NCBI GenBank assembly: GCA_048213135.1
Contig: PS015267.1
Span: 5,838 to 57,187, forward strand
Source: Reclinomonas americana ATCC 50394
Taxonomy: Eukaryota
Direction: 5' to 3'
Length of the DNA stretch: 51,350 nt
The translations under genes were made by a program, and so were the position numbers. Numbering within the stretch: position 1 is the first letter of the stretch; each line of letters starts with the position of its first letter. Shown here piece after piece: positions 1-42,524 of this stretch. The notes beneath the pieces were generated by a model. The model ran no database searches and was not told the origin of the DNA. It saw nothing but the letters and a program-made list of their open reading frames with translations.

Positions 1-3000
1 GCGACTGATGATCTTGAACACGTCCCGCGCACTCGACAAGTTGCTGCCCGACACCGTGATTCGCTTCGCCACTCCATCCGCCACAATCACCGACGGCGCC
101 AGCGACGACACATCCACTGTGTGTATGTCAAATAAATTTGTGTCAGCTGCAACGGCGACGACAAAAGACGACACAAGCACATTCTCTCGAGCTCCATACC
201 AATGTCAATCGATGCGCCCACTTTCAGAAATGTGTCAACACCGACACCCATGCCCACTGCAACACACACAGACGCAGTCCCTGCAGTCAGGCCACTCGGT
301 GCAAATCCACTCGCCACAGTGCTCAGCGTGTCGCCCGCTGGTGTCAGCGATGTGGCCAGCACTCCTCCACCCGCCGCAGTGCACGACGCGCCCGACTCCA
401 CCCGCACAATCGACGACGAGCTCAACCCGAATCCACTCACAGACACTTGCACATTGCTGCTCTGCGCCAGCAAAGCTCCCGGCGAGTATCCAGTCGCCGA
501 CACTGCATCACACCAAAAGAATGCAGTGTGACGAAAGGGTGCGCTTGGCAGGAAACGCAACAAGGGCATGAGAAAACACTCACCAGCCACGAGCGTAGTT
601 GCCGGTACAACTTGCACCCACGACAGTGTCGGTGCAAACCGCATGCAAATGATGTCTGCATCCACATGCACACTCGTCATCAATCACGCTCGACAATCAC
701 ACCATCGCTTGAACAGCACGCAACAATTGGCCGCAGGCACACTTCCCACCGTCACCACCATGTGTGTGAACGACGCATCAATACTCGCCGGCGTCACAAC
801 AGTGCCACCACCCATACACGGTCCCGAAGTCTGCACTTGCACGGAATCCGTCAGCGCCATCGAAGATCCCGTCAGCGTCACCGACGCCGTTCCGTCGTTG
901 GCCAGAATCACGGTGCCGAAAAATGAGGTCACAGATGCTGCACACACGCACAACAATGCCGTGGGTTAGCTGCTGCTCTGCATCCTCATCATCTCATATT
1001 CCCAATCATTGCAAAAAAGCAGCAGACGCAACGAACTCGCAACACCCCCACCACACTCCAGCTCGGGTACGTCGACGCAAACAGCACACACAGTGTGTAT
1101 CGTCCAGTTGCCACCATGCCGACCACAGAGATGCTGGCCGAGTTACGACCGGCCGACACACTGTCCACTCCGAAGGACACCAACGTGCCCGCACCCGAAC
1201 ACGATGACACGCCGCCAACTTGCAGCTGCGCTCGAAACGCCACTCGCCCACTATCGAACCCCACACCATTCACAGCAAGCTGCGGATTCGTGTCTGTCGG
1301 CATCACCACCGTCGGCGTGAACGTTGTCGTCGACGCTGTGCAACATAGGGGGATCAACATGCCAACACGATCCAACGATCTCTAGTCAACGCAAGCACGC
1401 ACGCAACTCGCATACAAGATGGCCGTGCCAACTCGCTGGAAACCCCATCCTGCTTGGAACTCCACGCATACCATGTACGAGCCCTGCACGCACACACACA
1501 CGCAAGAATTCAGCTCATCCGCACAGCACCAGTTGCAGGGGGCACACACAATTACTCACCGACGCAAGGCCGCCGCCTCCAATTTGCACCGTCAGCTCCG
1601 TCGACGATCCATTCACCGACTGGCTCACGCCCAACGATCCACCACCACCAACTGTGCACACTCCTGCACCCGTGGCCTCGAATCGCACGCTGTTGGTCGT
1701 GCGCAACGCTGACCCCGTCACCGTCACTTGCGCCGTTGACAGGCCAGTGGGAATCATGTCTGGAGAGAACGCAGTCGAGAAGCTGCTACTTGCCGCTGTC
1801 AACGAGAACAACATGTGCTGTCAGTCCCGCAATTCTCTGGCACACACAAGCAGGCAAGCAGGCGCACACACGCAACGAACAAACGCCGTTCCCGCCGCTT
1901 GCGCATATCCAAACGTGCTGTCGTACTGAACGCACACGCTCCACGAAGTGCCGCCGGCAAGACCGCCGCCAGTCACTTGCGCCGTCAACTGCGTCAGCGC
2001 GCCGTTCACACTCACACTGCTCAGCGCTGCACCACTCGCCGTCGGCGCCGTCGTGCAGTCCGACCCACCAGGCTCCACCCGCACCACAAACGATGTGTCC
2101 AATCCCGCGCCCACAATCACCACCTGCTGGCTCGCCGACGACGGCTGCCAGTACACTGGTGTGAACGATGTCACCGTCGCTGTGCCAGTCACAATCATTG
2201 TCAGTGACACACCCCCACACACAACACAGAGAACACGCAGTCAAAGCACACACACACACACGCAACGAGCAAGCAGCACTGCAGTGCCGACACGCGTGAA
2301 CGATGCAGAGCCCACAGTCCGGCTGCACACCAAATACGGGCCAGTCGCGAGCCCACTTGCACCAGCCGAGTACACAACCTCCGTGTGTGCCGCATTCACC
2401 GACACACTCACTCCCGCAGTTCCAGAGCCCGCAGCTGCACACGCGCCAGACGATCCCGGTTGGAATCGTATCGCATCGGCCGTGTCCAGTGACGTGCCAG
2501 TAACCGTCACTCTCATCGCCGCACTCGATGCCGCCACCACTGTCGGACCAAACGACGCTGCCGCTCCAGGAACTTGGGTGATGGTGAACGTCGACTGCAT
2601 CGACAGCGCCGGTGTGCCATTGTCCGTCACTCGAATGTCGACTGTCAGTGTGCCAGTCTGGTTGGCATTGACAATGTACACTTGATTGCCGGTGATCGAC
2701 AGGAGTGCTGCTGATGCCGATGGCTGCAAGGCATTCGTTCCCAGCCAATGAGAAAGCAATGACACAGACCCCCTCCTACTCTCGCTCACACACCTGAATT
2801 GAGTACGTCAGCGTCTGTCCCGCGTTGATGTCGGAGGCACTCAGTGTCCCCAACAGCGCATTCGCCGTGTACGGACGCATGTAGGTGAGTGGCGTCAGAG
2901 CGAGACTCGTTGGTGCCACATTGGCCTCACTCATGTAGAAGAACTTGCTGAATGTGTTGCCCGTGGAGTCCACCACCTGGATCTGCACTTCGAGATTGTT

Positions 3001-4643
3001 GCCTGTCAAACTCGCCGCATTGACCTTGAGCTGGTGGCCAGAAATTGAGAAGCTGGAGGCTGATGTGCCGCCGACGATGGTGAACGTCCACACGTCGTAC
3101 GTGTTGGCGTCGACCGCCGCCAGTGTGCCGAATGCTGTCCCCACGGCTGACGCTGGCGTGTACAAGTTGTTCGACAGCGTGATGTCGGTGGGTGGGAACG
3201 AAGCTGCACGCACATGCAGAGAGAGGGAGAGAGAGAGGGAGGGGGGGGGGAAATGAGCGAGTGCGAGATGCTGTGCATGCAAGGACTCGCTGACGAACTC
3301 GGATAGCAGCACATCTGGAGGCCGTTGAGGACGATGGACGTTCTCGTCCACGCGCCGTTGTTCCAGTTCACCACCGCATAACTCGTAAGGTCAGTGGAAA
3401 ACGATGGTGCTGCCACGACGGTGCACTTATCAGCAACAAGGCAAAACAAATTCTCTTATCCACAACGCCTACTCACAGCTCGTGTCGGATGTGAAACACA
3501 CTTGACCATCGATTGGGAACGGACCCATGGCCATGCCGTCACTCTTGGTATTGGCCCAGCTAAACGATGACGTGAACGTGGCTGATGCACGAGGCGCAGA
3601 GAACCGTCAGAGGAAAACGCAGGAGAGCAGCAGACACAAACACGGACTTGGTTGACGCACCAGAGTTGCTCGTTCCCGTCTGTCACCACAGCGCACAAAA
3701 CAATCGTGGTTAGCAAACCACAAAGAGAAGGGAGGACGAGCAGCAACGAGACGCAACCCAAGCACCGCCCTCTCCTGGGTCATTCTGTGCTACGTATGGC
3801 GAGCCCACAGAGAGGAGACTGTACGGCGTCGTAGCGGTCATCTTGGCGTTTTGAAACTTGGAGGATGTGCCAGCTGCACCATCCCAGTTGAGCTCGTACA
3901 CCCAATGCAGCTTGTCGGTGTTATCGACAAGGAAGTACGCGATCTGTGTGACACAGTGAGCAAGTGCGACAGAGGAGAGATGCAGAGGAAGCAAAAACGC
4001 AACAAATCCATCGCGCACTTCAAAGCCCGAATGCCACGATGCGTTGGAGTAGTCGAGATAGCTCACAATGTCGTTGGTGATGCACACGGGTTGGATAGTC
4101 GCAGGCGCCGCCAGTCCAGGGTACGTGTACGAGCACGAAAGCAGGCTCAATGAACTGCACCGCACAAATGTCAGGCTCCACACATACTGTCTCTCACGTA
4201 CGCAGTTGACAGCGTACAGCCTCACTCTATGACTCTCACTTGCCACGCGCGTGCGAGTGTGTAGGGAGTGTGGTCGTGAGTGTGCAAGATTCTGATGTGG
4301 ATGCACGAACCATGCTTCGACTGGCAGCGCGACTTGGATCACGAGTAGCACTGAGAGCACCACAGACGACGTGAAGGCTGGCTCCAGCGACCATGAAGCC
4401 TACAGCACCGCGCAGAGTGATGAGCCCAGCAAAATTAGACACAACACTCACTCTTCCTCTCTCTCATGCGCACACGCTCTCTTTGCCACGCGCGCGTGCC
4501 TTCTCTCTCTTCTGCACACACACGCACACACACACACATACACACACACAGATACTCTCTCTCTCTCTCTCTCTCTCGCACACACACTCAACTTGACACC
4601 GTCTCCATCGATGGCGAACTCTTTCACGAGCAGAGTCGCTCAT
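1..4643 (-). CDS. Giant surface/adhesion-type protein, paralog A (multi-exon; runs off the left edge). Signal peptide, N-terminal domain, 2 cadherin-like repeats, IPT/TIG-like repeats
   Basis: Spliced start MSDSARERVRHRWRRCQ|ASWSLEPAFTSSVVLSVLLVIQVALPVEA (basic then hydrophobic). Exon 2794-3203 plus the next exon encode PPTDITLS...GTLAAVD...FSISGHQL...VVDSTG and NVAPTSLAL...GTLSASD...TYSI...VTDNGTP (cadherin-like). Ser/Thr/Gly/Val-rich beta-sandwich-like exons follow. Start codon and first intron are inferred. Confidence 0.7.
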
Positions 4644-4775
4644 CGCGGTTTCGCGCGTTAGCATGTCGCTCGATGTCAGCAATTGCTTTTTTTCTGTCGC
4701 GCTCTGGCTTCTCAGCGCTTTTGCTTGCTTTCAAATTTCCTTTTGTAGAAATTCGTTCGGCGGCAAGTTTTTTCA

Positions 4776-19905
<15,130 letters not shown>

Positions 19906-20493
19906 CTCACACAGCGTGGGTGCGTGTGCGAGAGAGCGAGAGAGAGTGCGCGTCAAAAATCGAGCGCGGTGTGCGCTCTGTGCGAGACTGACTTTTTGAC
20001 TGTCTAAAACTCGGTGTCGGAGTTGCTGATTGCCGAAAATGCGTTGTACGATCTGAGACTGGGGATGCGGCGGTCTCTGTGCTCTTCCTCTCAAGTGCGG
20101 TTGACAATGGAGGACGATGCACGTTGCTGTATGCAGAGTTTTCGATGATGGTGAGCCGTCGATATCGACCAGTTTCATGGTCGGAAACTTTGCGGAGCGG
20201 GAAAAGACTGCTGTGTCGAGTGATGTGCCTCGAGTGCCACCTTCAGCCTGTGCTAGCCAACGTCGCCAGCATGAGACTCGCATGTTATTTGAGCTGGCGA
20301 GCCTCGATATCGATCGCGCGCGCGCGCGCACAAAACCACGCGACGTCGCGGTTCAAAAATCTCTCCGAGATGCTTGCAGAAGAGGTGATCATCTCAGTAC
20401 CCACCATAGCTTTCAAACGCGTACGCTGCAATCTGCAGTGGTGGCACGTTGCATTTTCCACTCAGGACGTCGCCGTCCCACGCGAACTTGCGA

Positions 20494-24783
<4,290 letters not shown>

Positions 24784-24795
24784 GTATGTCCATGG

Positions 24796-25842: not shown

Positions 25843-26554
25843 AATCGACGACCAGTGCGCCTGGTGGTGGCTCAGCGACAGCGCCGCGGCTTCCTCGATC
25901 TCGACCAGCAACTGAAAGAGCTCCCGCGCTACATTCGCCACCTGCACGTCGACACCAAAGTCATCGACTTTGGCACGGCCTCGCTCAAGGAGACGGTGCG
26001 TCTAGTCTTCCATTCTTCACACACGCACTCCTCATTCTCCACCCGCAGATCGAGACCGTGGCCTGGGCCGACATCCTCATCAGCGCACACGGCGCCGGCA
26101 TGGCCAACGTCATGTTCATGCGACGCGGAACGCAAGTCGTCGAGGTGCTGCCGGCCAACAACGCCGTGTGGTCCTCTCTCTATGCCTACAAGAACCTGAG
26201 CAACACGGTCGGCGCCAAGCACCACACGTTCGCGCTCAGTCTCCTCGACTCGTACGGCGAGGTGCGTGACCCACACACTTTCCCGCCTTTGCCCTTTGCT
26301 CACAGGCACATATGCGCGTGCAGGCCGCCGTGTCCATGTCACGCGTGCAACTGGACGCCCGGCTGCGAAGAGACAACAGCGTGGAACAGCAGTCGCTGCT
26401 GTACGAGGCGGAGCAGCAGCACATTTCGGCCAAGGAGATTGGCCACCTGGTGGTCTCGCTCCAGTACAACATGTGCGTCGACTACTTTGCGCCCGACGTG
26501 CGCGACGACTACCCCTTGCAACCGAGGCCGCCCGCCGCCAGCAACAAACCATAG
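25843..26554 (+). CDS. Glycosyltransferase family 61, C-terminal half (3 exons; on the inverted contig)
   Basis: RPVRLVVAQRQRR...SLKET|IETVAWADILISAHGAGMANVMFMRRGTQVVEVLP contains the GT61 HGAG(L/M)xN motif; stop TAG at 26552-26554. Confidence 0.85.
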
Positions 26555-26582
26555 AGTAAACAAGACCATAATCACTATATTT

Positions 26583-26726
26583 TTATATTGGTTGTGGTGG
26601 TGGCGGTGGCGGCATGACTTCATCCCCGTCTGCCGCAGCGGCAGCGCCAGGCACTGCCGTGGGATCTGGCAGCACGGTCGGCCCCTCGCGCAGCTTGGCG
26701 CGCAACCTTTCGTACGATTTGCGATC
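26583..26726 (-). CDS. NVL: Terminal exon of NVL (on the inverted contig)
   Basis: ccacag|DRKSYERLRAKLREG...PQPI* continues ...YPSVSRK in phase 0 and matches the NVL C-terminal pattern S(V/I)SxKDxxxYExL. Confidence 0.85.
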   Translation of the reverse strand, partial: DRKSYERLRAKLREGPTVLPDPTAVPGAAAAADGDEVMPPPPPPQPI

Positions 26727-26752
26727 CTGTGGNNNNNNNNNNNNNNNNNNNN

Positions 26753-27812
26753 ATCGTCACTACCACGCTTGGGAAGAACCGGGCGCACTCGCGCCATGAC
26801 GTGCCGACGCAACGCCGAAATGGTGCGCACTGCCAGCTCACGATACAGCGGACCATGATCGATAATGTGCCTGCAAGACAAGTCAGTGCCGAGAGAGCAC
26901 GCTAACAAGAGTGTGCGGAATACCAGTACGCGTAAAAGGGACCCATGGCAAGCACCGCATGCTCCATGCACAAGCATTTCCTGACAGCGCAGATGTCAGC
27001 AGTAAACCAAAGCAGCAGGAAAACAAGACAGCGCAACTTGGACGACAATCGCTCGACTCCGCGTGGCATGAACAGCTCCACCACCGACTTGGCACCCTGT
27101 CACACACACACACACACAGTAAGCCTCCAGATCGGTGTCTCTCATGCCAGAGTCACACACATACCAGCTTACTGATCGGATACCGCCACCGGCTAAACAC
27201 GCGCACCGTACCCAATCGATTCGCCAGCTCCACCAACGCCGACGGCTTCTTCGAGGCCCCGCCCAAGTCGGCCACACTCGGCACCTCCTCCTCGCCCACC
27301 ACCAACGCCATCCACACCCGCGTACTCAAATCCATCAACGCATGCGCATAGTTCCCCAAGTTCCGCGCTGCCTCACGATCGCCCTCCAGTACAACTCCCA
27401 ACGGCACAACCGCGCACTGCTCCCCGTCACTATTTGCATCCGCGGTCGTTGTTACGTAGCCGGCGTTATGTAGCAGATCGATTTGCGATGATGATTGCCA
27501 CCAGTGTTGCCGATGCGCGTCGCGAAATTGCGCGCGAAAGCTCTGTTGTGTGGCGGACCACAGCAGCCCATTGCATGCGCGAGCCTCCACCAGTGAGTCA
27601 TCATTGTCTGAGGAGGAGGAGGAGGAGTCGTCGTCAGAGAAGAGCCATGTGGGGTCGACTTCTGCTTGTTGTTGTTGTTGTTGTTGTCTGTCTTGTGTGG
27701 ACACTGTGATTGCGCTGTTGTTGTCTGTGCTGAGTATGGAGTAGAGGAGTGTGAGGAGGAGGCCACCGAACAGCACGAGCGCCACCACTGTGAGAGTGGT
27801 GCGTCGGTGCAT
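26753..27812 (-). CDS. Glycosyltransferase family 61, N-terminal half (type II membrane anchor, 4 exons)
   Basis: MHRRTTLTVVALVLFGGLLLTLLYSIL anchor and NYAHALMD motif; splices to ...SSKKCLCMEHAVLAMGPFYAYWHIIDHG...ALRRHVMARVRPVLPK and is open at the gap. Family assigned from its fit with the C-terminal half. Confidence 0.7.
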
Positions 27813-29874
27813 GTGTTGTGATTGATTGAAGGGTGACAGGACGAGGGGCGCGTCGAAGGGAGGAAGCAGGTGTCTTGCTCATGGGGAGAGGGTAATGGAT
27901 GCAAGCAGAGAAGGGGCCGAGGAAGTTGCTGATGCGCGATGAAGCGAAGGCAAGCATTCGTAAAGGGAACTTCGCAAACGTCACCTAGGCCTCCTTTGCA
28001 ACGTTGACCGACATTGAAAAGTTCAAATGCATTGCTGCACAAGGCGATCAGAACTCTCGGCAAGTGAGTACAAAAGCTTGCCGATTGCAATGACCGCCCA
28101 CGCGAAGGCTTCTCGCTGCTTGCGCAAGTCACGATATCGATGTTCATGCATCGACCATGTCCACCTCCGCCACCAGCCCAAGATGCGCTCCACATCACTG
28201 CTCACCCTACAGCAGACCACTCTTCCCAATCCGCTCGCTCAATCGGCGACGGCCTCGGGAGCTTGTGGCTCACGAGATCTACATTCAACGTCTCCGGATC
28301 CATTCTGCTTCACGGATCNNNNNNNNNNNNNNNNNNNNNNNNNNNNNNNNNNNNNNNNNNNNNNNNNNNNNNNNNNNNNNNNNNNNNNNNNNNNNNNNNN
28401 NNNNNNNNNNNNNNNNNNNNNNNNNNNNNNNNNNNNNNNNNNNNNNNNNNNNNNNNNNNNNNNNNNNNNNNNNNNNNNNNNNNNNNNNNNNNNNNNNNNN
28501 NNNNNNNNNNNNNNNNNNNNNNNNNNNNNNNNNNNNNNNNNNNNNNNNNNNNNNNNNNNNNNNNNNNNNNNNNNNNNNNNNNNNNNNNNNNNNNNNNNNN
28601 NNNNNNNNNNNNNNNNNNNNNNNNNNNNNNNNNNNNNNNNNNNNNNNNNNNNNNNNNNNNNNNNNNNNNNNNNNNNNNNNNNNNNNNNNNNNNNNNNNNN
28701 NNNNNNNNNNNNNNNNNNNNNNNNNNNNNNNNNNNNNNNNNNNNNNNNNNNNNNNNNNNNNNNNNNNNNNNNNNNNNNNNNNNNNNNNNNNNNNNNNNNN
28801 NNNNNNNNNNNNNNNNNNNNNNNNNNNNNNNNNNNNNNNNNNNNNNNNNNNNNNNNNNNNNNNNNNNNNNNNNNNNNNNNNNNNNNNNNNNNNNNNNNNN
28901 NNNNNNNNNNNNNNNNNNNNNNNNNNNNNNNNNNNNNNNNNNNNNNNNNNNNNNNNNNNNNNNNNNNNNNNNNNNNNNNNNNNNNNNNNNNNNNNNNNNN
29001 NNNNNNNNNNNNNNNNNNNNNNNNNNNNNNNNNNNAAGTGCGTCAAATCCACTGGTCAACCACGCTGATGCGGTGAAGATCGCAGTTCTCGACTTGTTCG
29101 GAGCTCCGAGAGCGAACGCACACACACAAGAAGCCTGCTGCTGCCTCAAGACTGGCGTTTGTGTTGATGTGTTGGATACGGTTGAACTTGCAACTGGTCA
29201 TCAAGACAGCTGTTGCTTGTTTGTTGGTGAATGAATTGTTGTTGCCGGTATCTGACATCGATATCATTCGAAAATCCGACGAATTCGAAGATCGGCGCAG
29301 CGAGCATGCGCACCCCTGCATGAACGCGCGCGGGCGCACTGCTCATCCTCACAGCCAACTGCTTTCATGCAACTGCCAAGAAAACTCGACCTCGTTGCAA
29401 AAGTTTGAAATCGATCTCGGCCATTTCAAGCAAATGCATCATCATGATCAATCGAGACTTGCGTGCGACGACACACTGCATCAGTTCGGCGCCAAGCCGT
29501 GTACAAGATGTACAATTAGCAGGTATATTAATAAAGCGCAAGCTCTCACACACCCGCAACGCGCGCAGATCGCGAGAGATGCTCAACCATCGCAGCGTGC
29601 TCGCGATCACGTGATTCATTCATGAAACCCCGCCTCGCAAGGGCGCGCCAAACTCCTCCCGCACTCACAACTGAACCGAGCAACCCGCGCTTATTCGAGC
29701 ATGTCGCGCGCGAGCTCGCGCGAGCGCCGTCCGACACACCGGACACACATTGCATTGCGTGACTGCATCACCAAACGCAGCGATCTCGTCCACAGACGCA
29801 GATTTATCGTTTTCTTTTGCGTGTGTGTGGGAGAGAGGAGACAACCCTCTCCTCTCCCTCTCTCTTTCTTCATC

Positions 29875-32800
29875 ATGAGTGACGATAACCGCATCCCGAC
29901 TCCACCTCTGCGTGTGGAAGTGAACGCGTCGACGCATTTGGAGATGCGATCGCCTGCGTCACTTGCCCAGTCCGCCTCTCAACGCAAGCTCATTGCGCCA
30001 ACTCCTTCAACGCGGCCGCCACGTCATCACCGCCACCAGCAGCAACAGCAGGCGGGCTTTGTGCGGCAAGTGTGGCTGCTGAGCAAAAAGAATCTTATTC
30101 TCATGGTGAGCTCTCTCTCTCTCTCCTCGCGCGCGCGTGTGTGTGTGTCTGACACTCTCTTCTCCGCAGCTGCGGCAATGGAAGACGACTGTCGTGATCC
30201 TCTTGGCGCCTTTTCTCTTCAATCTCGTGCTGCTCGTTCTCAACGCCGGCTTGTCTTCAAGAGCCGGAGTTTATGGAGATGTTGGTGAGTGTGTCTAACT
30301 CCTGCATACACACCCTCTCACACACACGCACTCTCTCTCTCCCTCTCTCCACGCATTCTTGGTACATGCATTAGTTTTGTGCGTCACGATTTAGGCCACC
30401 GCCAGTTTTTGTCCCGTGACGTTGCCTATCTCTTTTCTGCCTTCAGTCTGTGCTCCTTAGAGGCCATCCATCTTTTGCTACGTCGAATTCATTCATTGAC
30501 TATTGTATTTTTTTGGGTTTCTCAGTACGATCGTATCCGATTCGTGATATTCCGCCCATTCCGCGATGCCAGCGGTCGGTGGTGGCGCCCGACGGTGCCT
30601 GCACGTCGATTGCGTATGCGCCCGACAATGATCCGGATCTCGATGCGGCGATTGCGAATGTTGCGTGTTGCTGTGCAGCCTCTCCTGCTTTTCTATTCGT
30701 CGCGTCCTTGACTCTGCACCCTCTCTTCCTCTGCTCCATCTCATTCTCGACACCTGAGCTCTTCTCGTTGTCTCCTCCCCCTCCTCCTCTTCCTCCTCTT
30801 CTCCGCCTTTCCTTGTTGCAACCATCTCGTACTCCTCCTCTCTCCCTTCTATTCTCTATGACTCCTCATTCTTTCGTTTCGTCACTCTCCTCTCCGCCTT
30901 CTACCAACCATGACTTGCCCTTCCACTCGTAGATCTAATCCTCTACAGCCACTGCACTTTCTGGTCCCTCAATCATCATCTCCTTCCTCTCCCCCTCCTC
31001 CTCCTCCTCCTCCTTCTTCCTCTCTCCTCCTCTCCCTCTCCCTCTCCCTCTCCCTCTCCCTCTCCCTCTCCCTNNNNNNNNNNNNNNNNNNNNNNNNNNN
31101 NNNNNNNNNNNNNNNNNNNNNNNNNNNNNNNNNNNNNNNNNNNNNNNNNNNNNNNNNNNNNNNNNNNNNNNNNNNNNNNNNNNNNNNNNNNNNNNNNNNN
31201 NNNNNNNNNNNNNNNNNNNNNNNNNNNNNNNNNNNNNNNNNNNNNNNNNNNNNNNNNNNNNNNNNNNNNNNNNNNNNNNNNNNNNNNNNNNNNNNNNNNN
31301 NNNNNNNNNNNNNNNNNNNNNNNNNNNNNNNNNNNNNNNNNNNNNNNNNNNNNNNNNNNNNNNNNNNNNNNNNNNNNNNNNNNNNNNNNNNNNNNNNNNN
31401 NNNNNNNNNNNNNNNNNNNNNNNNNNNNNNNNNNNNNNNNNNNNNNNNNNNNNNNNNNNNNNNNNNNNNNNNNNNNNNNNNNNNNNNNNNNNNNNNNNNN
31501 NNNNNNNNNNNNNNNNNNNNNNNNNNNNNNNNNNNNNNNNNNNNNNNNNNNNNNNNNNNNNNNNNNNNNNNNNNNNNNNNNNNNNNNNNNNNNNNNNNNN
31601 NNNNNNNNNNNNNNNNNNNNNNNNNNNCCTCCTCCTCCTCCTCCTCCTCCTCCTCCTCCTCCTCCTCCTCCTCCTCCTCCTCCTCCTCCTCCTCCTCCTC
31701 CTCCTCCTCCTCCTCTTCCTCCTACTCCTCCTCCTCCTCGCCCTCCTCCTCCTCCTCCTCCACCCTCTCTCCCTCCCTCTTCGCCCCCTCCCCTCCCTTC
31801 CACTCTTCCCCTGCTCCTTCTCTCATCTCCCCCTTTCCCTTTATCTCCCCCCTTCTCCTCCCCTCGCAGATCGTGACAGCCAACAACCTGGACCCCCCTC
31901 GTAAATTCGCCAACGGCGACGCCGTCAACTCGTTCCTCGTGCAGAACCGCAACATCACGCAGGCGGCATACATTTTCAACTCACCGCTCTCCGACTCCAA
32001 CGTCGACTACACCATTCAGTACAACGCCACCCAGCTGTGCGGTCTCGACATTTACTGCAACAACCCCGAGGAGCAGCTGGTGGTGCCGATGCAGGCGGCC
32101 ATGAATAATCAAATATGTTGCGTAACAGCCGTTGTCACGTGGACTTCTTCTTCTCCGTTGTGCTAACGATGGCGACTTTGCGCAGGGCTCAAGCACTTTG
32201 GCACCAGCAAGACCACGCGTGTGGCGCAGTATCCGCGGACAGAGTTGTATGCCGTCAACAGTTGCGCCACTGATCCCCGCCTCTGCACTCTCTCCTTTCA
32301 TTTATCTGACTTGATGCGCTCCATTCCAGTCGTCTCCCTCAGCGGCGTCTTCTTCTACTTCCTCGTGTACATTTTTGTGTTCATTGTGTGCCTCGGCGGT
32401 ATCGTGGCCGAAAAGGAGCGCAAGCTTCGCGACATGATGCGACTGGCGGGCCTGGGAGTTGCATCTTCTCACACACTCCCTCTCTGTCTCTCAGTCAATC
32501 TCACATTTCTTCCCTCCACAGAACCTCAGCTTTTGGCTCTCGTGGTTTGTGCAGCAAATGTTTGTCGTGCTGGTGGTCACCCTCGTCATCATCACGTCTG
32601 GCGCCGCCTTCCAATTCCGCTTCTTCCTCAAGAACAACTTTGGCACCTACTTTTTCCTCTTCTTCCTCTTTGGCATGTGCATGATCATGCTGGCGTTTTG
32701 GTTCTCCACCTTGATCAACTCGTCGCGCGTGGCCAGTTGCGTCTCCCACTCTTCACTTGTTGCATGTCTCTGGAGGCGAAGACTCACTCTTTTGTCGATG

Positions 32801-35800
32801 TGCAGCACCGGTCGGCTTCATGTTCTTCATCGTTTGCTACTTTTTCGCCGACGCCACTGGCCGACTGTTCCCGGTGCTCACCGAAGGTAAGCTCGCCACC
32901 CCGCGCCTCTCAGACCTCGCTCGCTCACTTTGCGTGTCCGCAGGCATCCGTCTGGCCTTCTCCTTCATTCCTCCGGTGCTCTTCTCCAAAGGCCTGAACG
33001 ACCTTGACAAAATCAGCTCGAGCGCGCTATCGCCTGGTCTGAGCTGGAGTGACGTCGGCAGCTACACTACCGTGTGGCCTCTTACGCGCATCTACGGCTG
33101 GCTTGTGCTGGACACTGCCATTCTGGCCTTCTTGACCTGGTACTGCGACAATGTGGTGCCGAGTTGCGCGATTCTCTTCACGATGTGTGCGGATCACGCA
33201 CGCGGTGACTTACCTTCCCCTCGACACAGCACCCTCTGGCGCCCGCCGTCCGTTCTACTTCTTCCTCACCAAGTCGTACTGGACCGGCCGCTCGTCATCG
33301 AAGCGCACGCAGGCGACAGAAAAGCCGATCAAAGGCCTGCCCCTCTCGTCGGAGCTCACCGACGAGGACAACGATGTGCGAGACGAGCGTGAGCGGCTGC
33401 AGAAGGAGTCGGTGAGCTGTGCTCTGTTGTCTTCTCTCCTCTTCTCCTCTCTTTCCTTTGAGTCCGAAGCACCATGCGCCTCTCTCCCTTTCTTTCACTC
33501 CATAGACAGCGCATTTCGCCGCCATGTACCACTCCTTTTCCCTTCGCTTCTTTGCCCTCTCCTTCGCTCACTTCTCCTCTCTTCGCTTATTCTCCTCTTC
33601 CATGCTTCTCTTTCTTGTCTCTCCTCCCTTCCCCTCTCTTCTCCTCTCTCTTCTCACCTTTTCCCTTCTCCTTCTCCTCTACTCTCCCCTATTCTCCTTC
33701 TCCTCCCTCCTCTCTTCTCCTCTCTTCCTGCATCCTCCTCACCACCATCGCCGCCACAGGGAGACGAACACCGTGCATCGTTTGCCGTGCGCATCGAGAA
33801 CCTGGTGAAGCGCTTCGGCAGGAACAATGTCCTCCGTCGCCTCTACTTGGGCATTGAGCAGCCGGCCAACGAAGACGACGGACTGCTGTTTGGTCTGCTG
33901 GGTCCCAACGGAGCGGGCAAGGTGCGCGAAGTCGATGCAGTCTCTTTCCCGCTGCACTTTGCCTTGCTCACGCTGGTGTGACAGACCACGACAATCAACA
34001 TCCTGACCGGACTCATGCCGCCCACCGACGGCCATGCGGAGATCTGCGGCCTCGATGTGGCCGCCCAGTTCTCCGAGGTGCAGCGCCTCATTGGCGTGTG
34101 CCCGCAGTTCGACATTTTGTACGACGATCTGTCGGCTCGCGAGTCACTCCAACTCTTTGCCGGCCTGCACGGCATGAGCGACGAGGAGATTGAGGAGGAG
34201 GTGCAGCGTCGTCTCGAGCAGGTCGGTCTCGTCGATGTGCAGCACGACCGCTCCTCCACGTTCAGTGGTGGTATGAAGCGCCGTCTGAGTGTTGCTGTTG
34301 GTGAGTGTTGCCTGACGGAGAAGGAAGAGGAGAGATGAAAAACAACAGCAAGCTTCTCTTGACCTCTCTCTCTTTCTCCTCATCCTCCTCTTCCTCCTTC
34401 TTCTTGTTCTTCTTCTCTTCTTCTTCTTCTCTCTTCTTCTTCTTCTTCTTCTTCTTCTTCTTCTCCTTCGCCTTCTATTTCTTCTTCTTCCTCATGACAA
34501 CTGCAAAGAGACATAGCTTTAGCACTTATGTTCCTCACTTATTTTGTTGTTTGTGCTTGCAGCTCTTGTCGGTGATCCGAGTTGCGTGGTGGTGGTGGCC
34601 GTAGCTGCTTGCACTTCACGTTGATGGCTCACTGCCGCGTACAGAGGTGGTGTTCCTCGACGAGCCGACGACGGGTATGGACCCTGTCATGCGTCGCCAA
34701 GTGTGGACCATGCTCGAGGATGCCAAGCGCGGTCGTGTCATTATCCTGACCTCCCACTCCATGGAAGTTGCGCAGTGCGTGATGAGCCTCTCGCCCCACT
34801 TGCCACTCACTATCTACTCTCCATTTTCTCTCTCTCCACAGGAAGTGGATTACCTGGCCGATCAAATCGGTACTGTCGTGTAGCCTGCTCGTGCACCCTT
34901 GCTGTCCATCCTCCTCATCTCCCGCACAGGCATTGTCGCCGCTGGACGCCTGCGCTGCATCGGCTCATCCACTCGCCTGAAGAACAAGTTCGGCGCCGGT
35001 TATCAGCTGACTGGTCGCTGCGAGAATCCGGAGCGGCATCGTGACGTGGCCGACGCCGTCGTCCGTCTCTTGCCCTGTGCGTCGTCTGTCGCGTCACTTG
35101 CCCTTTGTATCCTCCTCGCTCATGCTCCACCCTTCCCCACCCGCAGCGTCGAACCTCGTGCTGGCGGCCGGCACCTTCCTCACGTTCAACATTCCCCGCG
35201 CCTCCATGACGGATCTGCCGGGTTTGCTGCGTGCGCTGAAGCAGCGCGAGTCCGAGATCGGCTTCACCGACGTGGCGGTGAGGCAGTCGACGCTGGAGGA
35301 TGTGTTCCTGTCGATTGTCGACCAGACCAAGGTCGCGGATGCTGCCGCTGCCGGCAAGCCGGTGGAGGTGGAGATGTCGCAGCTGGTGCGCGCGCCCACC
35401 ATGTTGGAGGCGCCGCACAAGTACGACAAGATCAAGGCGGCGACCACTGGTGCGCAAGTTCGCGCGCTGATTATCAAGAGCTGGAATGTGCAGAAGAGGG
35501 TGAGATTGGGAAGGGGGAGAAGAGGGGGAAGGGGGAAGGGGAAGGGAGAAGAGGGGAAGGGGGGAAGAGGGGAATGGGGAAGGGGAAGGGGGAAGGGCGA
35601 AGGAGAAGGGAGAAGGGAGAATGGAGGGGAAGGGGAAGGGAAAGAGATAAGGGAATAGTGAGAAGAGAGAAAGGGAATGGAAAGGAGAAGAGAGGAAGGG
35701 GAAGGGGAGAGAGAAGGGAGAAGTGCAGGGGGAAGGGAGAAGGCGAAAAAGAAGGGGAAGGCATAGGGGAAGAAAAAAGAGGAGAAGGAGAAGGGGGAAG

Positions 35801-38800
35801 GGGAACGGAGAAGACGGAAGGGGCGGACAAGTGGGAAGAAGAAGGAGGAAGAAATGCAGTGAGATACGTGACTATTATTCACGAACGGCAGTCACCTGTT
35901 TGTCATTGTTTCTGCAAAGCAATTGGCGACAAGAATACACGACAGGAAGTGGTGGGGAGAGAATGGGACAGAATTAGTTGATTGTCTTCCTCGGCTAACA
36001 ATCGTCCTTTCTTCTCTGCACGCTGCTCTCCAGTCCCTTGCGTTTCACTTCTCTTTATCTGCTTCCTTTCGTTTGGGTTTCTCATGCGCGTTTGGTGCTT
36101 ACCATACTCACTTCGCACACAACTCAGGCCTGGTGTGCCAACATTTGCTTCTTTGCGAGTCCCATTATTCTGGTGAGTTTGTTGTCACGAGTCTGCTGTG
36201 CTTGGTGTGCAGACTCTCATCGCGTTTCATGCAGTTGCTGCTCGTGCTCGGTGCACAAGCTCTCTTTGTGTCCCTCATTCCCGGCGTGGGCGGCAACGCT
36301 CGGCCGCAAATTCGACAAGCTGCAATCTAGTTTCGTTTTTACCAGCAAGCAGATGATAAGAAGAAGATGACTGACAGGCTCACAGCATCGATGAAACGGG
36401 TATCGTCAATCCCACTGTCCCCTACACGGCGCCCGACTCGCTGTCGACGGTGCTCGGCTCCATGTCATACACGTCGACTCCGCCACAGCTCTCCGGCTTG
36501 TTTGGCGCGTTTGATTTCTCCAAGATCACAGTTGCGTGTTGCTACGATCCACCAGTGCGCCACACGTCGCGACCCTCACTCCTCTCTCCGCACGCAGATT
36601 TGGGAGAAATACACGACCGACAAGGTGGCCACGCCGCCGCCGGTGACCAGTGTGCAGTATCCCAACAAGGCGGCCGTCGACCAGTTCCTCCTGTCGCAGT
36701 TCAACCCGACCTCGCTCCAGTCGGTGCTCTTTGGCCTCGCTGTGGATACGGTGGACACGAACTCCAAGGCGCTGGAGTACTCGGTGTTTACCAACAGTGT
36801 GCGTAGGAGGGGAAAGGGGGAAGGGGGAAGGAGGAGGGAAAGGAAAAGGGGAAGGGGTGAAAGGGGAAGAGAGGGGGAAGGGGTAAAAGGAGAAAGGGGT
36901 AAGGGGTGAAGGGGCGGGGAGGTGAGGTGGCTCCGTTCTACCATTTTTAAGTTCTCTCTCTCTCTCTCTCTCTCTCGCTGTCACTCTCGTATGGTGGGCG
37001 TCACGAAGAGCTTCTCTTCCTATTGCTGGCGCTCTGTCTTTTTCGTTGGTTCTCGCATATCTGTTCCACGAAGCCCAGTTCTGCCATTCTTCGGTCTCTC
37101 TCTGTCTCTGTCTCTGTCGTGGTTCCCACGGCAGGAAGAGGAGGAATGCCGCAGGAGGGCTTTCTGTTGCTCTGCCTCTCGTTATACACCCCATATATTT
37201 GCATTCCTGAACTTCGCTTCTTGCGGATATTCTGCTGTTTATTCTCTCTCTATCGCGCATTCTACGGTGTGCGCTAGGAAGCGATTTGTAGAAAGAGACA
37301 GCCTCTCTTTCTTTTGTTCTGTCTTTCTCATTCCACAGATGTTTTTGCAGCTATTCTGCTTTCAGTATTCTCTCTCTTTCACGGAGAGGGTGGAGAAATG
37401 CAGATGGGGTCTGCTTCTCTTTCTGTTGACGGAGTTCTGTTTTTCTCATTCCACCTGCACGTTCTCGCGAGCTGTTTCGCTCTGTTCTGTTTTACTTTTC
37501 TCTCTCTGTCTCTCTGTCTCTCTCTCTCTCTCTCACGCGTTGTGGGAATCGACTGCTGACTGCGCATACTGTTGCAGAGTGTCGGCTACACCGCCAACGA
37601 CATCTTCTTCCAGACGTACTTGAACACGTCGAATACAGTCGGCACCATGCAGCTCGTGGACAATGCGGCGTTTGGACTGTTCAAGGGCACGTACTCTGCC
37701 TCGCTGACCACCAGTTGCGTGCTGTGAGGAGCTCCTTTCACAGTGTTGTTGTGCATTCCACTCACCTACTTGGGGTGCTGCAGGACTCCGCTCCTTCCCC
37801 ACGCTCAACAATGACACAGAGGCCGGCACTCAACGTTTCGTGCCTGTCCCGCTGCTGAGCAATGTGAGACTGAGACTGACACTTCTCTCTGTGTTTGTGC
37901 GCAGTGGATGGTACTGTGCTAGCCTCTCACCCAATTCCGTTGAAGCGTATCTCACTCACTTCTCGTGTCTTTCCTCTCTTGCGTCACTCGCCACAGTCGT
38001 TCCATTCTTGTTGGTGAGTTGGCGCTGATCTTTGATGTCGTGAGTATGGATTTGTCTCACTCACCCGTCTGTGCAGCCGCTGATGATCTTCATCTCGTTC
38101 TTCCTGATCCTGCCGATTGTTGTGGGGGTACGTGGTGCAAGCAGGGAGAAGAGAAGAAAGACGGGAGAAAGAGGGCAAGGGAGAAGGAGAGCAGCGGAGG
38201 GAGTAGGAGGCAAGGGAGAGGGAAATCAAGGGAGAAGAAGGGAGAAAGAGAGCAAGAGAGGAGGAGGGCAAGGGAGGAAAGGGGCAAGGGAGAAGGAGGG
38301 CAGGGACAAGGAGGGCAAGGGAAATGGAGGACAAGGGAGAAGGAGGGCAAGGAAGGAAATGGGCAAGGTAGAATGAGGGCAAGGGAAAGGAGGGCGAGGG
38401 ATAAGGAGAGCAGGGGAGACGGAGGGCAAAGCAGAAGGAGAGCTGGGGAGAAGGAGGACAAGGGAGAAAATAATGGAGCAAGAGAAATGAGCGCAAGGGA
38501 GAAGATAGAAGGGAGACAAGAGGGAGAGGAGGAAAAGGGCAGGGTAGAAAGAGGGCAAGGGAAAAGAAGGCAAGGGAAAGGAGTGCAAGGGAAAGGAGGA
38601 CACCAAAGAAGGAGGGTAAGGGAGAAGGAGGGAGCAAGAGAAATGAGAGAGCGAGGAACGCGGATGAGAGAAAGACAACTTGACGAAGGAGAAGGAGATG
38701 GGCAGTATTCAGATGGCTGAGTCTTCTTGTTTCTTGCTCTGCTGGCTCGCTAACTGTGCCGTCTCTGCCTGCAGAACCTGGTGTCGGAAAAGGAAAATCG

Positions 38801-41800
38801 CCTCCGATTCCTCATGCGCCTGATGGGGCTCCGCTCGTCGGTGTACTGGATGACCACCTTTGTCTGGTACTATGTCATGTTCTGCCTTGCGACCATCATC
38901 ATTTGCGTTACTGGCGGTATTCTGCGGTTCCGGTGCGTTGATGTGTAGACAAGTGACAGCTGTGGGCGATGTCCTCACCGTCTATTGTGGCCTCAGTTTC
39001 TTCACACAAAATGCACCGGGCACATACGTGCTGCTATTCCTCCTGTGGGGCTTGGCGGCCATTGCCATGGGATTTGTGTTAAGCACGCTGTTCTCGACCG
39101 AGTACTCGGCATTTGGTGAGCCTGTTGATCATGCCGTGCTCTCCGTCCTCCTCCACCATTCTGCTAACCGTCTTGACTGCCTCGCAGTGATTGCCATTGT
39201 CATTGAGATTGTGCTGATCATTGTCGTGCGCGTGATCAACAACACGTTCCTCAAGGCCGGTGGTGATCTCTTCTATCTGGAGTTCATTACGTCCATTTTA
39301 CCACCCTTTGCGTTTGAACGGTACGTGAGACATGCAATCATTCAGCGTCACCTGTGCTTTCCTCCTAATTCTCTTTGCTGTGCGCAACAGTGGCATCGGC
39401 ATCCTCAACCAGGCCGTCATCAACAACCGACCTGGCCTGCGCATCGGCGACATTCAGTCCAGCGGTCTCGCCGCCGTCTACGGCTACCTCATTGTGTGGG
39501 CGCTGATCTGGCTCCTCGTCACCTACTACTTGGAGCAAGTGCTGCCCGGTGGCGCTGGACTGCCGCGCAGTCCTGCGTTCCTGTGCCACCGCTCGTTCTG
39601 GCGCAGTTGCTGCTGCTGCTGCGGAAATCGTGGCAAGCCGAATATGGAGCGCCGCATGTCGGAGCTACCTGTTCTTGCGCACGGCAAGGTGCGGTCCACG
39701 GCGGAAGGGGGGGATAGAAATGATTGAAGCTGACTCTGTGCTCGCAGGATGATCTGGAGGCCGGGCATGAACGTGACGAGGAGGGTCCCGACGTGCAAGC
39801 TGAGGAAGCGCGAGCGAGGCGTGAAATCGACGACGGCGTGTCGGTCATTGGCATTCGTAAGAAGTATCCGGTGCGCAACCATTGAGGTAGAAGAAGTGGT
39901 GGTTGTTGTGCTCATGCAAGATAATTGGCTGCAGAATTCACAAAAGGTCGCACTGAAAAAGCTTTCGCTGCGGGTACCGCGGGTGCGTTTGGTATTACGT
40001 CGTGTGCAGAGTGCAGAGTTCGTTGTTGACATCTCCTAACACCAGGGAGAGTGCTTCGGATTGCTCGGCCACAACGGCGCAGGTTGGTGTCGTGATGGTT
40101 GTTGATGTGCGCAGTACCGACCGCGAATCACTCACATCTGCTGCTGCACCAGGCAAGACGACCTCGCTGTCGATCATTGCCGGCCTCTTTGCGGCCGACG
40201 GCGGCGACGTGTTCCTCCAAGGCCACCACGTCGACGAGGACAACATGAACAGCATTTACAAGATTCTGGGCATTTGCGCGCAGCACGACATTCTGTGGCC
40301 CACCATGACTGGCGCGGAGCATGTGGCGTTCTTTGCGCGACTGAAGGGCCTGCGAGGTGAGGGAGGAGAGAGTGTGAGCGCAAGAGTGAGTGGCCCTGAC
40401 TGGAGAGAGTGTGGTGCAGGGCCGGCTGTGGATGCGGAGATTGAGCGCCAGCTGGGTGCTGTCGGCTTGCTGCCGGCGCGCGACCGTCTCTCCAAGGACT
40501 ACAGCGGCGGCATGCGACGCCGTCTTAACACATCGGTGTCGCTGACGGGCAACCCGCGTGTGCTGTTGCTGGATGAGCCGAGCTCAGTTGCGTTAGCAAA
40601 ACAGGTTTATTTGTGTTACTGTCAGTTCTCTTATCATGAACGTCACAGGGTCTCGATCCGTACTCTCGACGCGAACTGTGGCGCTGCGTAATGATGGCCA
40701 AGCGCGAGGGTCGGGCGATGATTCTCACGTCGCATAGCATGGAGGAGGCTGGTGCGTTGTTGGAGAAGGGTGTGTATGTGCGAGTGCGATGCTGAAAGAA
40801 GTTGGTGTTGTGTGAACAGAAACGCTGGCCGATCGAGTCGGCATCATGGCGGAGGGTCGACTCAAGTGTGTAGGGTTCTCGCAGGATGTGAGTCGCAAGG
40901 GAAAGGGGGAGAAGGGGAAAGGGGAAATAGGGAAAGGGAGATAAGGGGAAGGGGGATAGGGGAAGGGAAGGGGGATAAGGAAAGGGAGGTGGAGGTCACT
41001 GGAAAGGGCGAATAAGATGGGTTAAAGGGCGAATAAGATGGGTTTATGGGAAGGGTGGATGGAGGTGGAGGGTGACGGAGGAGGAGGGAGATGGAGGAGA
41101 AGGGAGATGGAGGAGAAGGGAGAAGGAAGTTAACAAGGGTGGATGAGAAGGGTGGATGTGTAGAAGTAGGAGACGAAAGAAAAGGGCAGAAGGAAACGGG
41201 CGATGAAGAAAGAAAGAGAGAGAGAGCAGAGACAGAGGGAGGTATGGGCGAAGGGAACGAGAGAGGTGCTCAGAAAGCACATCAGCAAGAGGCACTGTGG
41301 GACGCTAGGTATGACGATGTGATTGTGAAGCACATGAAAGGAGTGTTTGTGAAGAGCAGCGTGAAGAAACGAAGATGGACCAGCAAAGAGAAAGGAGGAG
41401 GAGAACGGGAGGGAATAGCAGAAGGAGAACGAGGATTGAAGCTGACAATCAACACGACGAGTTAGACCGAGAAACAGAAAGAAGATGGGGAAGAGATACT
41501 GGCATCATCATTGACTCTGCTTCGGTGTCATGCGCAGTTGAAGCAACGCTACGGACGCGGCTACAAGATGGTGGTCACCTGCAGCCCGATTGACCGCGAC
41601 CGTGTCGTCAAGTGAGTGCGACTTTCTGCCCAGTTCCTTGCTGTGAGTTCTTCTCATCCTTTCATCCCTTGTCAAGCTATGTGCAAGGTCGCTTCCGCGA
41701 TGCTGTGCTGGAAAAGGATGTCAGCGGGCACCTCACGTTCTTGGTTTGTCTGCCTTTATGATTGTGCTGCATGCAAGTGCGTCACTAACCACCTGGTCAC

Positions 41801-42001
41801 AGATGCCAAGCGCGGCCACGCAGCTGGCAGACCTGTTCGAGGTGATGGAGCGCAGCCGCGTGGATATTGGTGTGCGCGACTGGGGAATCAACCAGACAAG
41901 TTTCGTGAATCAGTGACGCTGGTGGTGTGATTGCTGGTTGCTCACTCGTGGTTTTGCGCGCAGCACTGGAGGATGTGTTTATCAGCGTGGGGCGCGAATG
42001 A
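29875..42001 (+). CDS. ABCA: Full-length ABC transporter subfamily A (TMD-NBD-TMD-NBD), about 40 introns
   Basis: [15 protein letters not shown]-terminal motif; [63 protein letters not shown]; second half [50 protein letters not shown]. Exact 3' end and one intron near 36300 are unresolved. Confidence 0.93.
34581..34644 (+). other. Example intron with atypical A|GTTGCGT donor
   Basis: Splicing CCG A|GTTGCG...ACAG|AG GTG restores [20 protein letters not shown] branch-point-like motif lies upstream of the AG. Confidence 0.9.
38140..38660. repeat. Polypurine minisatellite (gggcaaggga-like unit) in an ABCA intron
   Basis: Many imperfect copies of agggcaagggagaagg. Confidence 0.8.
40587..40648 (+). 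other. Example intron with atypical A|GTTGCGT donor
   Basis: AGC TCA|GTTGCG...ACAG|GGT CTC GAT CCG restores the ABC D-loop LDEPSSGLDP. Confidence 0.92.
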
Positions 42002-42090: not shown

Positions 42091-42231
42091 GGGAGGGGGA
42101 CCAGTTTTGCTCGTGTTTTATTGCGGAGCTGCCCTCTCACCGCGTCTGTGTGAATGGTGGGGACGAAGGCGACGTCGACGCACTTCCCGATGCCATCGAG
42201 CCATGTTCTCTGATGTGTGGATGGCACGCGA
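42091..42231 (+). pseudogene. Degenerate duplicate of the methyltransferase 5' segment
   Basis: IAELPSHRVCVNGGDEGDVDALPDAIEP versus IAELLSHRVFVPGGDEGDAPPDAIEP (42531 onward), then two 1-nt deletions (gagccatg versus gagcccatg; ggatggc versus ggattggc). Confidence 0.6.
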
Positions 42232-42524
42232 TCGAAGGAGAAGAGAGGAGAGCGACAGAGAACGAAAGAACGAAGCGCAAGAAGAGGAAGAAGATGAAGG
42301 AGAGGAAGAGGGAGAAGGAGGAGGAGGAACATGTGCAGGATCCGGAAGTGGGGCATTGCGCCTGAATTGCAGTTGCATTGTGGCGCAGGCGATGACGAGC
42401 ATCGTGTCAAAGAGAAGGGTCAATACTCACGAGTGCAAGAGCTCCCACTGTGTTCTCTGCACATGCTCAGACAAGAACAAAGTTTTGTCCGGGAAGGACC
42501 GGTTTTGCACCTGTTTCTCTCCAG

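Follow-up and report, generated by a model that had tools for sequence, protein, structure and literature searches.

A candidate class of 5′ splice sites displaced by one base from the ordinary consensus in three genes of Reclinomonas americana

The 51,350-base stretch analysed here (the window; Reclinomonas americana ATCC 50394, contig PS015267.1, forward-strand positions 5,838 to 57,187) is nuclear DNA of a eukaryote and has 12 runs of N, a G+C content of about 55–58% outside the gaps and numerous short introns. Three of its genes, encoding an ABCA-type ABC transporter, an NVL/Rix7-type AAA ATPase and a giant protein of TIG/IPT-like repeats (Table 1), contain, beside ordinary 5′ splice sites (donors), an abundant second kind that reads GTTGCGY. 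We refer to GTTGCGY donors and their relatives GTTGCAT and GTTTCGT as class B, and to ordinary donors as class A.

Genes of the window and a recurring donor motif

Removal of the 40 introns of the curated ABCA model leaves a single open reading frame (ORF) of 1,750 codons (5,253 nucleotides (nt)), whose sole stop lies at 41999–42001; among the closest relatives of the protein the best identity is 58%, on one exon. The best matches of NVL reach 80% identity over part of the query and 58% over its full length. The minus strand from about 90 to 20400 is occupied by giant TIG/IPT-like repeat genes, and a segmental duplication covers the 5′ part of the TIG/IPT-like repeat surface-protein gene, with one exon pair identical at 300 of 303 positions and introns 80–96% identical. 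The duplicate copy at 1–5000 was kept out of the statistics. The first 9 nt are identical in five of five class-B intron pairs between the duplicates, which is weak evidence given introns only 4–20% diverged.

GTTGCGY occurs 51 times in the window, compared with 20.24 ± 4.28 expected from 100 dinucleotide shuffles (maximum 31), and is biased toward the coding strand, with ten sense and two antisense copies in ABCA and 22 sense and five antisense copies in the minus-strand block 1–20400. All ten GTTGCG(T/C) sites that the original prediction had placed in ABCA, and the three relatives it named (GTTGCAT at 32458, GTTTCGT at 37835 and 41900), were located on the plus strand at exactly those positions. 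To avoid circularity, genes were parsed by dynamic programming with a parser that knows GT..AG ends, codon log-odds and a fixed intron cost but no donor motif. GTTGCG emerged as the commonest donor hexamer (15 of 94 introns), and remained so when acceptor and branch terms, but still no donor term, were added (18 of 117 introns, ahead of GTGAGT with 12 and GTGCGT with 6). Many of the parsed introns are spurious, and the GTTGCG signal was therefore diluted by the parser, not created by it. An expectation–maximization mixture of two motif components plus background, fitted to 75 donors from the parser without a donor term, split them into H/GTTGCGT(G)T with a weight of 0.29, G/GTG(A/C)GT with 0.49 and background with 0.22 (the slash marks the exon–intron junction; H, not G). 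A later parser pass used this mixture as its donor model and is less independent.

Curated donors account for 19 of the 24 GTTGCGY copies on the sense strand of the three genes, where none of the GTTGAGY (1 occurrence), GTTGGGY (1) or GTTGTGY (13) heptamers is used as a donor. The apparently unused GTTGCGT copies are of four kinds, two of which follow G: one within an intron, 22 nt downstream of a GTGAGT donor (16066 and 561, minus strand); one after G in a repeat exon (12433, minus strand, gag/GTTGCGT); one after G and 8 nt past a GTGCTT donor (19092 and 3757, minus strand); and one 2 nt inside an NVL exon (20868, plus strand). The copy at 19092 (tgg/GTTGCGT) was considered as a donor and rejected: no ORF-preserving acceptor was found for it, and the GTGCTT donor at 19100 was retained. 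Outside the curated genes, more GTTGCGY copies lie at 26706, 26813 and 27037 (within 26400–29850, minus strand) and at 46103, 47825, 47897, 49329 and 49374 (within 42100–51350); among these only 49329 (minus strand) was picked as a donor, by the pass with the donor model.

Table 1. Genes and predicted class-B donors of the window. Coordinates are window positions; homolog counts are from motif-blind protein-to-genome alignment.
Feature	Position	Strand	Details and evidence
ABCA-type ABC transporter gene	29875..42001	+	Curated model of 41 exons and 40 introns, 14 with class-B donors
NVL/Rix7-type AAA ATPase gene	20660..24790	+	Class-B donors 20799, 21085, 22050; spliced alignment, 15 homologs
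Giant TIG/IPT-like repeat gene, part	15300..20400	−	Parser without donor motif and per-exon translations
TIG/IPT-like gene class-B donors (first G)	19340, 17981, 17587, 16923, 16547, 16230	−	Parser without donor motif
Recent duplicate of 15300–20400	1..5000	−	Same class-B donors: 4003, 2266, 1876, 1407, 1032, 724
ABCA donor aat/GTTGCGT	30660..30666	+	Intron to 31869, contains assembly gap; parser; 3/12 homologs; ORF requires
ABCA donor tat/GTTGCGT	32117..32123	+	Intron to 32185; parser; 2/12 homologs; read-through stop at codon 16
ABCA donor aca/GTTGCGC	32261..32267	+	Intron to 32329; 2/12 homologs; junction aligns; ORF model requires
ABCA relative gga/GTTGCAT	32458..32464	+	Intron to 32521; 11/12 homologs; parser
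ABCA donor cca/GTTGCGT	32736..32742	+	Intron to 32805; 6/12 homologs; parser
ABCA donor cga/GTTGCGC	33163..33169	+	Intron to 33229; 10/12 homologs
ABCA donor cga/GTTGCGT	34581..34587	+	Intron to 34644; 12/12 homologs, gap-free; splits GDP/KVVFLDEP (Walker B)
ABCA donor gaa/GTTGCGC	34767..34773	+	Intron to 34841; 12/12 homologs, gap-free; splits HSME/E (H-loop)
ABCA relative cta/GTTTCGT	36330..36336	+	Intron to 36385; parser; 4/12 homologs; read-through stop immediate
ABCA donor aca/GTTGCGT	36531..36537	+	Intron to 36597; parser; 3/12 homologs; ORF requires
ABCA donor cca/GTTGCGT	37714..37720	+	Intron to 37783; 3/12 homologs; read-through stop at codon 4
ABCA relative aac/GTTTCGT	37835..37841	+	Intron to 37904; ORF model only; 0/12 homologs
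ABCA donor tca/GTTGCGT	40587..40593	+	Intron to 40648; 11/12 homologs, gap-free; splits DEPSS/GLDP
ABCA relative caa/GTTTCGT	41900..41906	+	Intron to 41963; 9/12 homologs
NVL donor gga/GTTGCGC	22050..22056	+	Intron to 22124; 14/15 NVL homologs; inside conserved AAA domain
NVL class-B donors	21085, 20799	+	4/15 and 2/15 homologs, respectively

Placement of the donors by homologous proteins

Homologous proteins (12 for ABCA and 15 for NVL) were aligned to the genome under BLOSUM62, with introns admitted only if they ran from GT to AG over at least 35 nt and with no donor or acceptor weights; junctions were additionally aligned by MAFFT with ten ABCA homologs. This motif-blind alignment recovered eight class-B donors with at least half of the 12 or 15 homologs, and the ABCA donors recovered with none to four of the 12 sit in poorly conserved regions of the protein. 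The MAFFT junctions are gap-free at Walker B, the H-loop, the second D-loop region and several transmembrane segments; the three junctions that had been tied to conserved motifs at the outset, GDP/KVVFLDEP, HSME/E and DEPSS/GLDP, all align to the homologs without gaps. Because the ORF closes, the homologs align across these introns blind to the motif and the junctions are gap-free, we take the predicted introns as real on this comparative evidence.

Of the 14 class-B introns of ABCA, 11 have lengths that are not multiples of three and would shift the frame if retained, and six run into a stop on read-through; at 34767 and 40587 this stop is reached past the codons of the intron itself. The introns at 32261 and 34767 would remain in frame if retained; the latter is fixed by its H-loop motif, and the former is the weakest-supported class-B site. 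At 33163 the parser chose instead a GTGCGG donor 24 nt downstream, giving a 43-nt intron. The GTTTCGT at 36330 is likely a fourth relative, one that the original prediction did not list.

Exclusion of G from the exon end

The curated non-redundant set comprises 56 introns (37 from ABCA, 10 from NVL and 9 from one copy of the TIG/IPT-like gene); three uncertain ABCA introns and the duplicate TIG/IPT-like copy were left out. Class B makes up 23 of the 56, with 19 GTTGCGY, one GTTGCAT and three GTTTCGT donors. The last exonic base (−1) is G in none of the 23 (A 13, T 6, C 4), compared with 28 of the 33 class-A donors (Fisher p = 6e-11), and the same split is seen in the homology-supported subset, with G at none of eight class-B sites (all A) and at 17 of 20 class-A sites (p = 5e-5). 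Within the intron, class B carries T at +3 in all 23 donors, G 20 and T 3 at +4, C at +5 in all 23, G 22 and A 1 at +6, and T 18 and C 5 at +7, whereas the class-A +4 column holds A 17, C 12, G 2 and T 2. These counts confirm H/GUUGCGY as a distinct, abundant and sharply defined class of predicted donors tied to a non-G exon end.

Most of what had been read from the sequence at first holds in the curated set: +5G is missing from class B, +7 is always a pyrimidine, ordinary donors mostly follow G, and, in three genes of one window, GTTGCG is associated with a non-G exon end. The class share of about 16 of 53 introns first given for NVL plus ABCA is close to the 17 of 50 found now. An initial tally of 22 GTTGCG donors (A 11, T 7, C 3 and G 1 at −1) was upheld for 19 in the three genes (A 10, T 6, C 3, G 0), while the rest (for example, 49329, 27037, 26813 and 26706) fell outside gene models.

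Other donors beginning GTT follow G and keep +5G and +6T, namely 40083 (cag/GTTGGT, 12/12 homologs), 22660 (agg/GTTAGT, 15/15) and 41744 (ttg/GTTTGT, 2/12 homologs and otherwise the model only). GTT donors therefore fall into an in-register kind that has −1G and a displaced kind that lacks it. Among further unusual sites, the donor at 34870 (tcg/GTACTG) is recovered with 12/12 homologs yet lacks +5G, the donor at 21842 (cga/GTGATG) with 13/15, its acceptor tentatively placed by eye at 21914 (73-nt intron), and an AAG acceptor at 23167 with 15/15.

Intron type

Introns of the two classes have CAG acceptors and the same median length, 69 nt, and inspection of 21 class-B and 21 class-A introns found branch-like CTNAC or TGAC motifs 10–40 nt upstream of the CAG in both; at the 3′ end the two classes would be served by the same machinery. 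A difference in intron length was considered and rejected: long introns numbered 8 of 30 in class A and 0 of 21 in class B without gap-containing introns (p = 0.015) but 8 of 33 and 2 of 23 with these included (p = 0.17).

U12-type introns combine the 5′ splice site RTATCCTT with a TCCTTAAC-like branch site near the 3′ end, and neither the 5′ motif nor the branch motif was seen on inspection of 21 class-B introns. Class B resembles U12-type sites in having a long, near-invariant intronic 5′ motif and no exon consensus; unlike them, its motif is unrelated to RTATCCTT and its branch sites, acceptors and lengths are those of ordinary introns. An introner or transposon-derived family was likewise rejected: by eye, the 21 class-B introns share nothing past the first 7–9 nt, save in the recent gene duplicate, and are therefore not copies of a mobile intron. 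We take class-B introns to be genuine U2-type GT–AG spliceosomal introns, with splicing at these sites predicted.

A one-base offset of the donor profile

A position weight matrix (PWM) was trained on the 33 class-A donors alone, with 656 other GTs of the ABCA sense strand as decoys. Moved by one base, it separated class B from decoys with an area under the curve (AUC) of 0.997; at shifts 0 and 2 the AUC was 0.157 and 0.212, respectively. The mean class-B score at shift +1 was 4.53 nats (4.43 for class A in register, on its own training sites), and none of the 656 decoys reached the class-B median. Under class-A columns +2 to +6, the class-B cores rank high among the 1,024 possible pentamers, with TGCGT second, TGCGC fourth, TTCGT 14th and TGCAT 44th. 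The original suggestion that A/GTTGCGY is AG/GTGCGY moved by one base thus stands at the level of sequence, but with two restrictions: the displacement is confined to the GCG subtype, and −1G is excluded.

A proposed register shift and its limits

This offset suggests a mode of recognition. The intronic signal of class B would be that of ordinary G/GUGCGY displaced downstream by exactly one nucleotide, with intron +1G sitting where ordinary sites have exon −1G. We infer from it both a reader and a register: the molecules that read class A, first the U1 5′ end and then U6, would engage class B shifted by one base. In the shifted register +1G would face U1 C9, +2U would be mismatched with C8 and +3 to +7 would take the place of +2 to +6, with cleavage staying at the only GU. 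Such a helix would be intrinsically weak and would need all its other positions to be optimal, which could explain the near-invariance of UGCGY. Of the shifted or bulged recognition proposed at the outset, the shift is favoured by the offset and by the absence of −1G, because a −1 base beside a bulge would face C9 and keep G; the bulge is not favoured, and pairing energy with canonical U1 remains at decoy level. In the shifted helix −1 would face U10, which fits the excess of A there (13 of 23; eight of eight homology-supported sites). We give an even chance to the reading that the ordinary machinery recognizes class B in a register shifted by one base, which makes it the likeliest of those considered.

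Pairing was computed with ViennaRNA duplexfold, which allows bulges and loops and hence any register, with the 5′ end of canonical U1 taken from PMC4856993. At the best class-B sites the minimum free energy duplex coincides exactly with the shifted register (−3.6 kcal/mol at 36531, for example). In a scan of 1,024 guide variants at U1 positions 2–6, scored against 300 of the 656 decoys, canonical U1 ranked seventh for class A (AUC 0.92); because this 5′ end accounts near-optimally for class A, the organism probably has a canonical U1 that reads class A. The best guides for class B were direct complements of the motif (AUC 0.92–0.95), and no single guide served both classes (best minimum AUC 0.80). 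A single divergent U1 with G5/C6 was rejected, with AUCs of 0.80 for class A, poorer than canonical, and 0.71 for class B. The energies of duplexes formed with the U6 ACAGAGA heptamer told nothing about either class (AUC 0.43 and 0.37).

Several results weigh against the shifted register. Mean duplex energies were −7.5 kcal/mol for class A (n = 33), −1.6 for class B (n = 23) and −2.6 for decoys (n = 656), with 63% of decoys at or below the class-B median, and canonical U1 ranked 544th of 1,024 guides for class B (AUC 0.40); in these models, U1 pairing energy alone cannot be what selects class B. Given A 17 and C 12 at class-A +4, a pure shift predicts GTTGAGY donors, yet TGAGT, the top-ranked displaced core, is never used, with no GTTGAGY donor and C at +5 throughout. 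The class-A −2 column contains G in 7 of 33 sites, and a G–U wobble would be tolerable, yet G is absent from class-B −1. Furthermore, 15 of the 23 class-B sites come from ORF logic or from the parser pass with the donor model, strong homolog support covering eight, and all data come from three genes within one 51-kb window.

Alternative modes of recognition

The energies would be accommodated by a dedicated guide RNA, either a variant U1 paralogue or another small RNA, complementary to GUUGCGY and pairing in normal register with a separate class of introns: canonical U1 pairs with class B no better than with decoys, and the guides that do best are direct complements of the motif, none of which fits both classes. 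The near-invariant +3 to +7, including +5C, beside an exon side without consensus also recalls U12-type sites, which are read by their own small nuclear RNA (snRNA). We nevertheless regard a dedicated guide as unlikely. The one-base match to the class-A profile (AUC 0.997; rank 2 of 1,024) would become a coincidence, K at +4 (G 20, T 3) and Y at +7 lack a single Watson–Crick partner, and a guide that kept C9 should favour −1G, which none of the 23 sites has. In addition, the tunicate Fritillaria borealis is described as having changed its splice sites massively with the U1 5′ end unchanged (PMC13326754), which lowers the prior for a rewritten U1. More far-reaching, and doubtful, is a third mode of 5′ splice-site recognition beside U2 and U12, in which a dedicated small RNA (a rewritten U1 paralogue or a new snRNA) or a protein would read /GUUGCGY in about one-third of introns and the exclusion of −1G would keep ordinary U1 off. 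An Rfam scan of the 51-kb window at gathering thresholds returned no matches and no snRNA gene.

A further reading moves most of the choice away from U1 pairing, to a sequence-specific protein bound to UUGCGY or to the tri-snRNP (U6/U5/Prp8) at 5′ splice-site transfer. That U1 pairing energy does not discriminate class B is consistent with it, as are the GCG core common to G/GTGCGY (+4C in 12 of 33 class-A donors) and class B, and the account in PMC11732430 of 5′ splice-site commitment as lying largely at U6/U5 transfer; but U6 ACAGAGA energies carried no information, no candidate protein or motif partner was identified, and class B has neither the −1G of the U5 class nor, in register, the GURAG of the U6 class, so that we rate this reading somewhat below a dedicated guide. 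Bulged pairing of canonical U1, in which the U at +2 or +3 loops out and +1G lies on C8, produces the same offset of +4 to +7 relative to class A as the shift does, and 68 human sites of this type are predicted, 54 after curation (PMC4856993, Table 3). It is improbable for class B, because −1 would then face C9 and be expected to be G as in class A (28 of 33), and because duplexfold permits bulges yet still returns decoy-level energies. Least probable by far is a modelling artefact, in which GTTGCGY would be a word with a coding or regulatory role that is not used for splicing. The in-frame introns at 32261 and 34767 and the five of 24 sense-strand GTTGCGY copies not modelled as donors are what such an artefact could leave, but homologs align gap-free across the junctions, including those of Walker B, the H-loop and the D-loop region; most ABCA class-B introns would shift the frame (11 of 14) or meet a stop (6 of 14); the ORF closes only with class-B introns removed; and GTTGCGY shows a strong preference for the coding strand.

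Relation to known splice sites

Recognition by the ordinary machinery in a shifted register has precedents. Validated noncanonical U1 registers, shifted and bulged, account for about 1.5% of 201,541 human 5′ splice sites according to PMC4856993. Human +1 shifted-register sites (Roca and Krainer 2009, via PMC4856993) resemble class B in having an extra U after GU, a consensus that comes one position late, an exon −1 base other than G and cleavage at the GU (here predicted). Unlike these rare human registers, class B accounts for 17 of 50 introns in two genes and 23 of 56 in three; human shifted sites have an A-rich core (..AAGU) and pair well with U1, whereas class B has the GCG core only and pairs poorly with canonical U1; and the human registers are validated, whereas that of class B is predicted. 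The bulge +2/+3 register (PMC4856993, Fig. 1C and Table 3) also involves an extra U after GU, with +6G and +7U acting as +5G and +6U, but the model keeps −1G:C9, and all 23 class-B sites lack −1G.

Parker, Fica and Simpson (2025; PMC11732430) describe two main 5′ splice-site classes, AG//GUNNN (U5-type) and NN//GURAG (U6-type), in which exon and intron strength are anticorrelated. The donors described here likewise fall into two groups, and a strong intronic motif is anticorrelated with G at the exon end. They differ from that model in that class A has both −1G and +5G, while class B has +5C and no GURAG in register; and the split here is discrete, with a one-base offset, unlike a see-saw of strengths. 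In F. borealis, most splice sites are reported to be re-patterned with the U1 5′ end, the U6 ACAGAGA box and U5 loop 1 strictly conserved (PMC13326754). There too a sizeable fraction of 5′ splice sites deviates from complementarity to U1, and a shifted U1 register is left open by the authors; however, F. borealis loses GT and has diverse intron ends, whereas class B keeps GT–AG and one sharply defined heptamer. A search of open-access full text found no description of a /GTTGCGY donor class, and the matches, judged by title and abstract, look like primers or unrelated contexts.

If, in a free-living eukaryote, a one-base-displaced donor serves about one-third of introns, it would offer a natural system for asking what fixes the cleavage position if recognition takes place through an out-of-register helix, how 5′ splice-site choice is apportioned between U1 and the hand-over to U6/U5, and why a displaced site demands +5C and forbids −1G. 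Shifted and bulged U1 registers have so far been a fringe phenomenon in studied organisms (about 1.5% of human sites in PMC4856993). In this genome, gene finders trained on only one model of the donor will get a large share of exons wrong; the parser used here itself read through or skipped several class-B introns.

Further features of the genes

Between the duplicates, from about 5000 to 15300, lies a long array of 321–330-nt repeat exons whose intervening introns begin with GTGAGT or GTGCGT. ABCA contains an 18-nt micro-exon (34563–34580, encoding ALVGDP), both flanking introns of which were recovered with 12/12 homologs, and two more micro-exons, of 6 nt (37905–37910) and 17 nt (37997–38013), that are demanded by the ORF model only. 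The long ABCA introns (30700–31850, 33420–33760, 35500–35860, 36810–36900, 38140–38640 and 40900–41230) have a strand-asymmetric, microsatellite-like filling, rich in CCT/CT over the gene's first half and in GGGAAG/GA over its second, with several assembly gaps inside these tracts.

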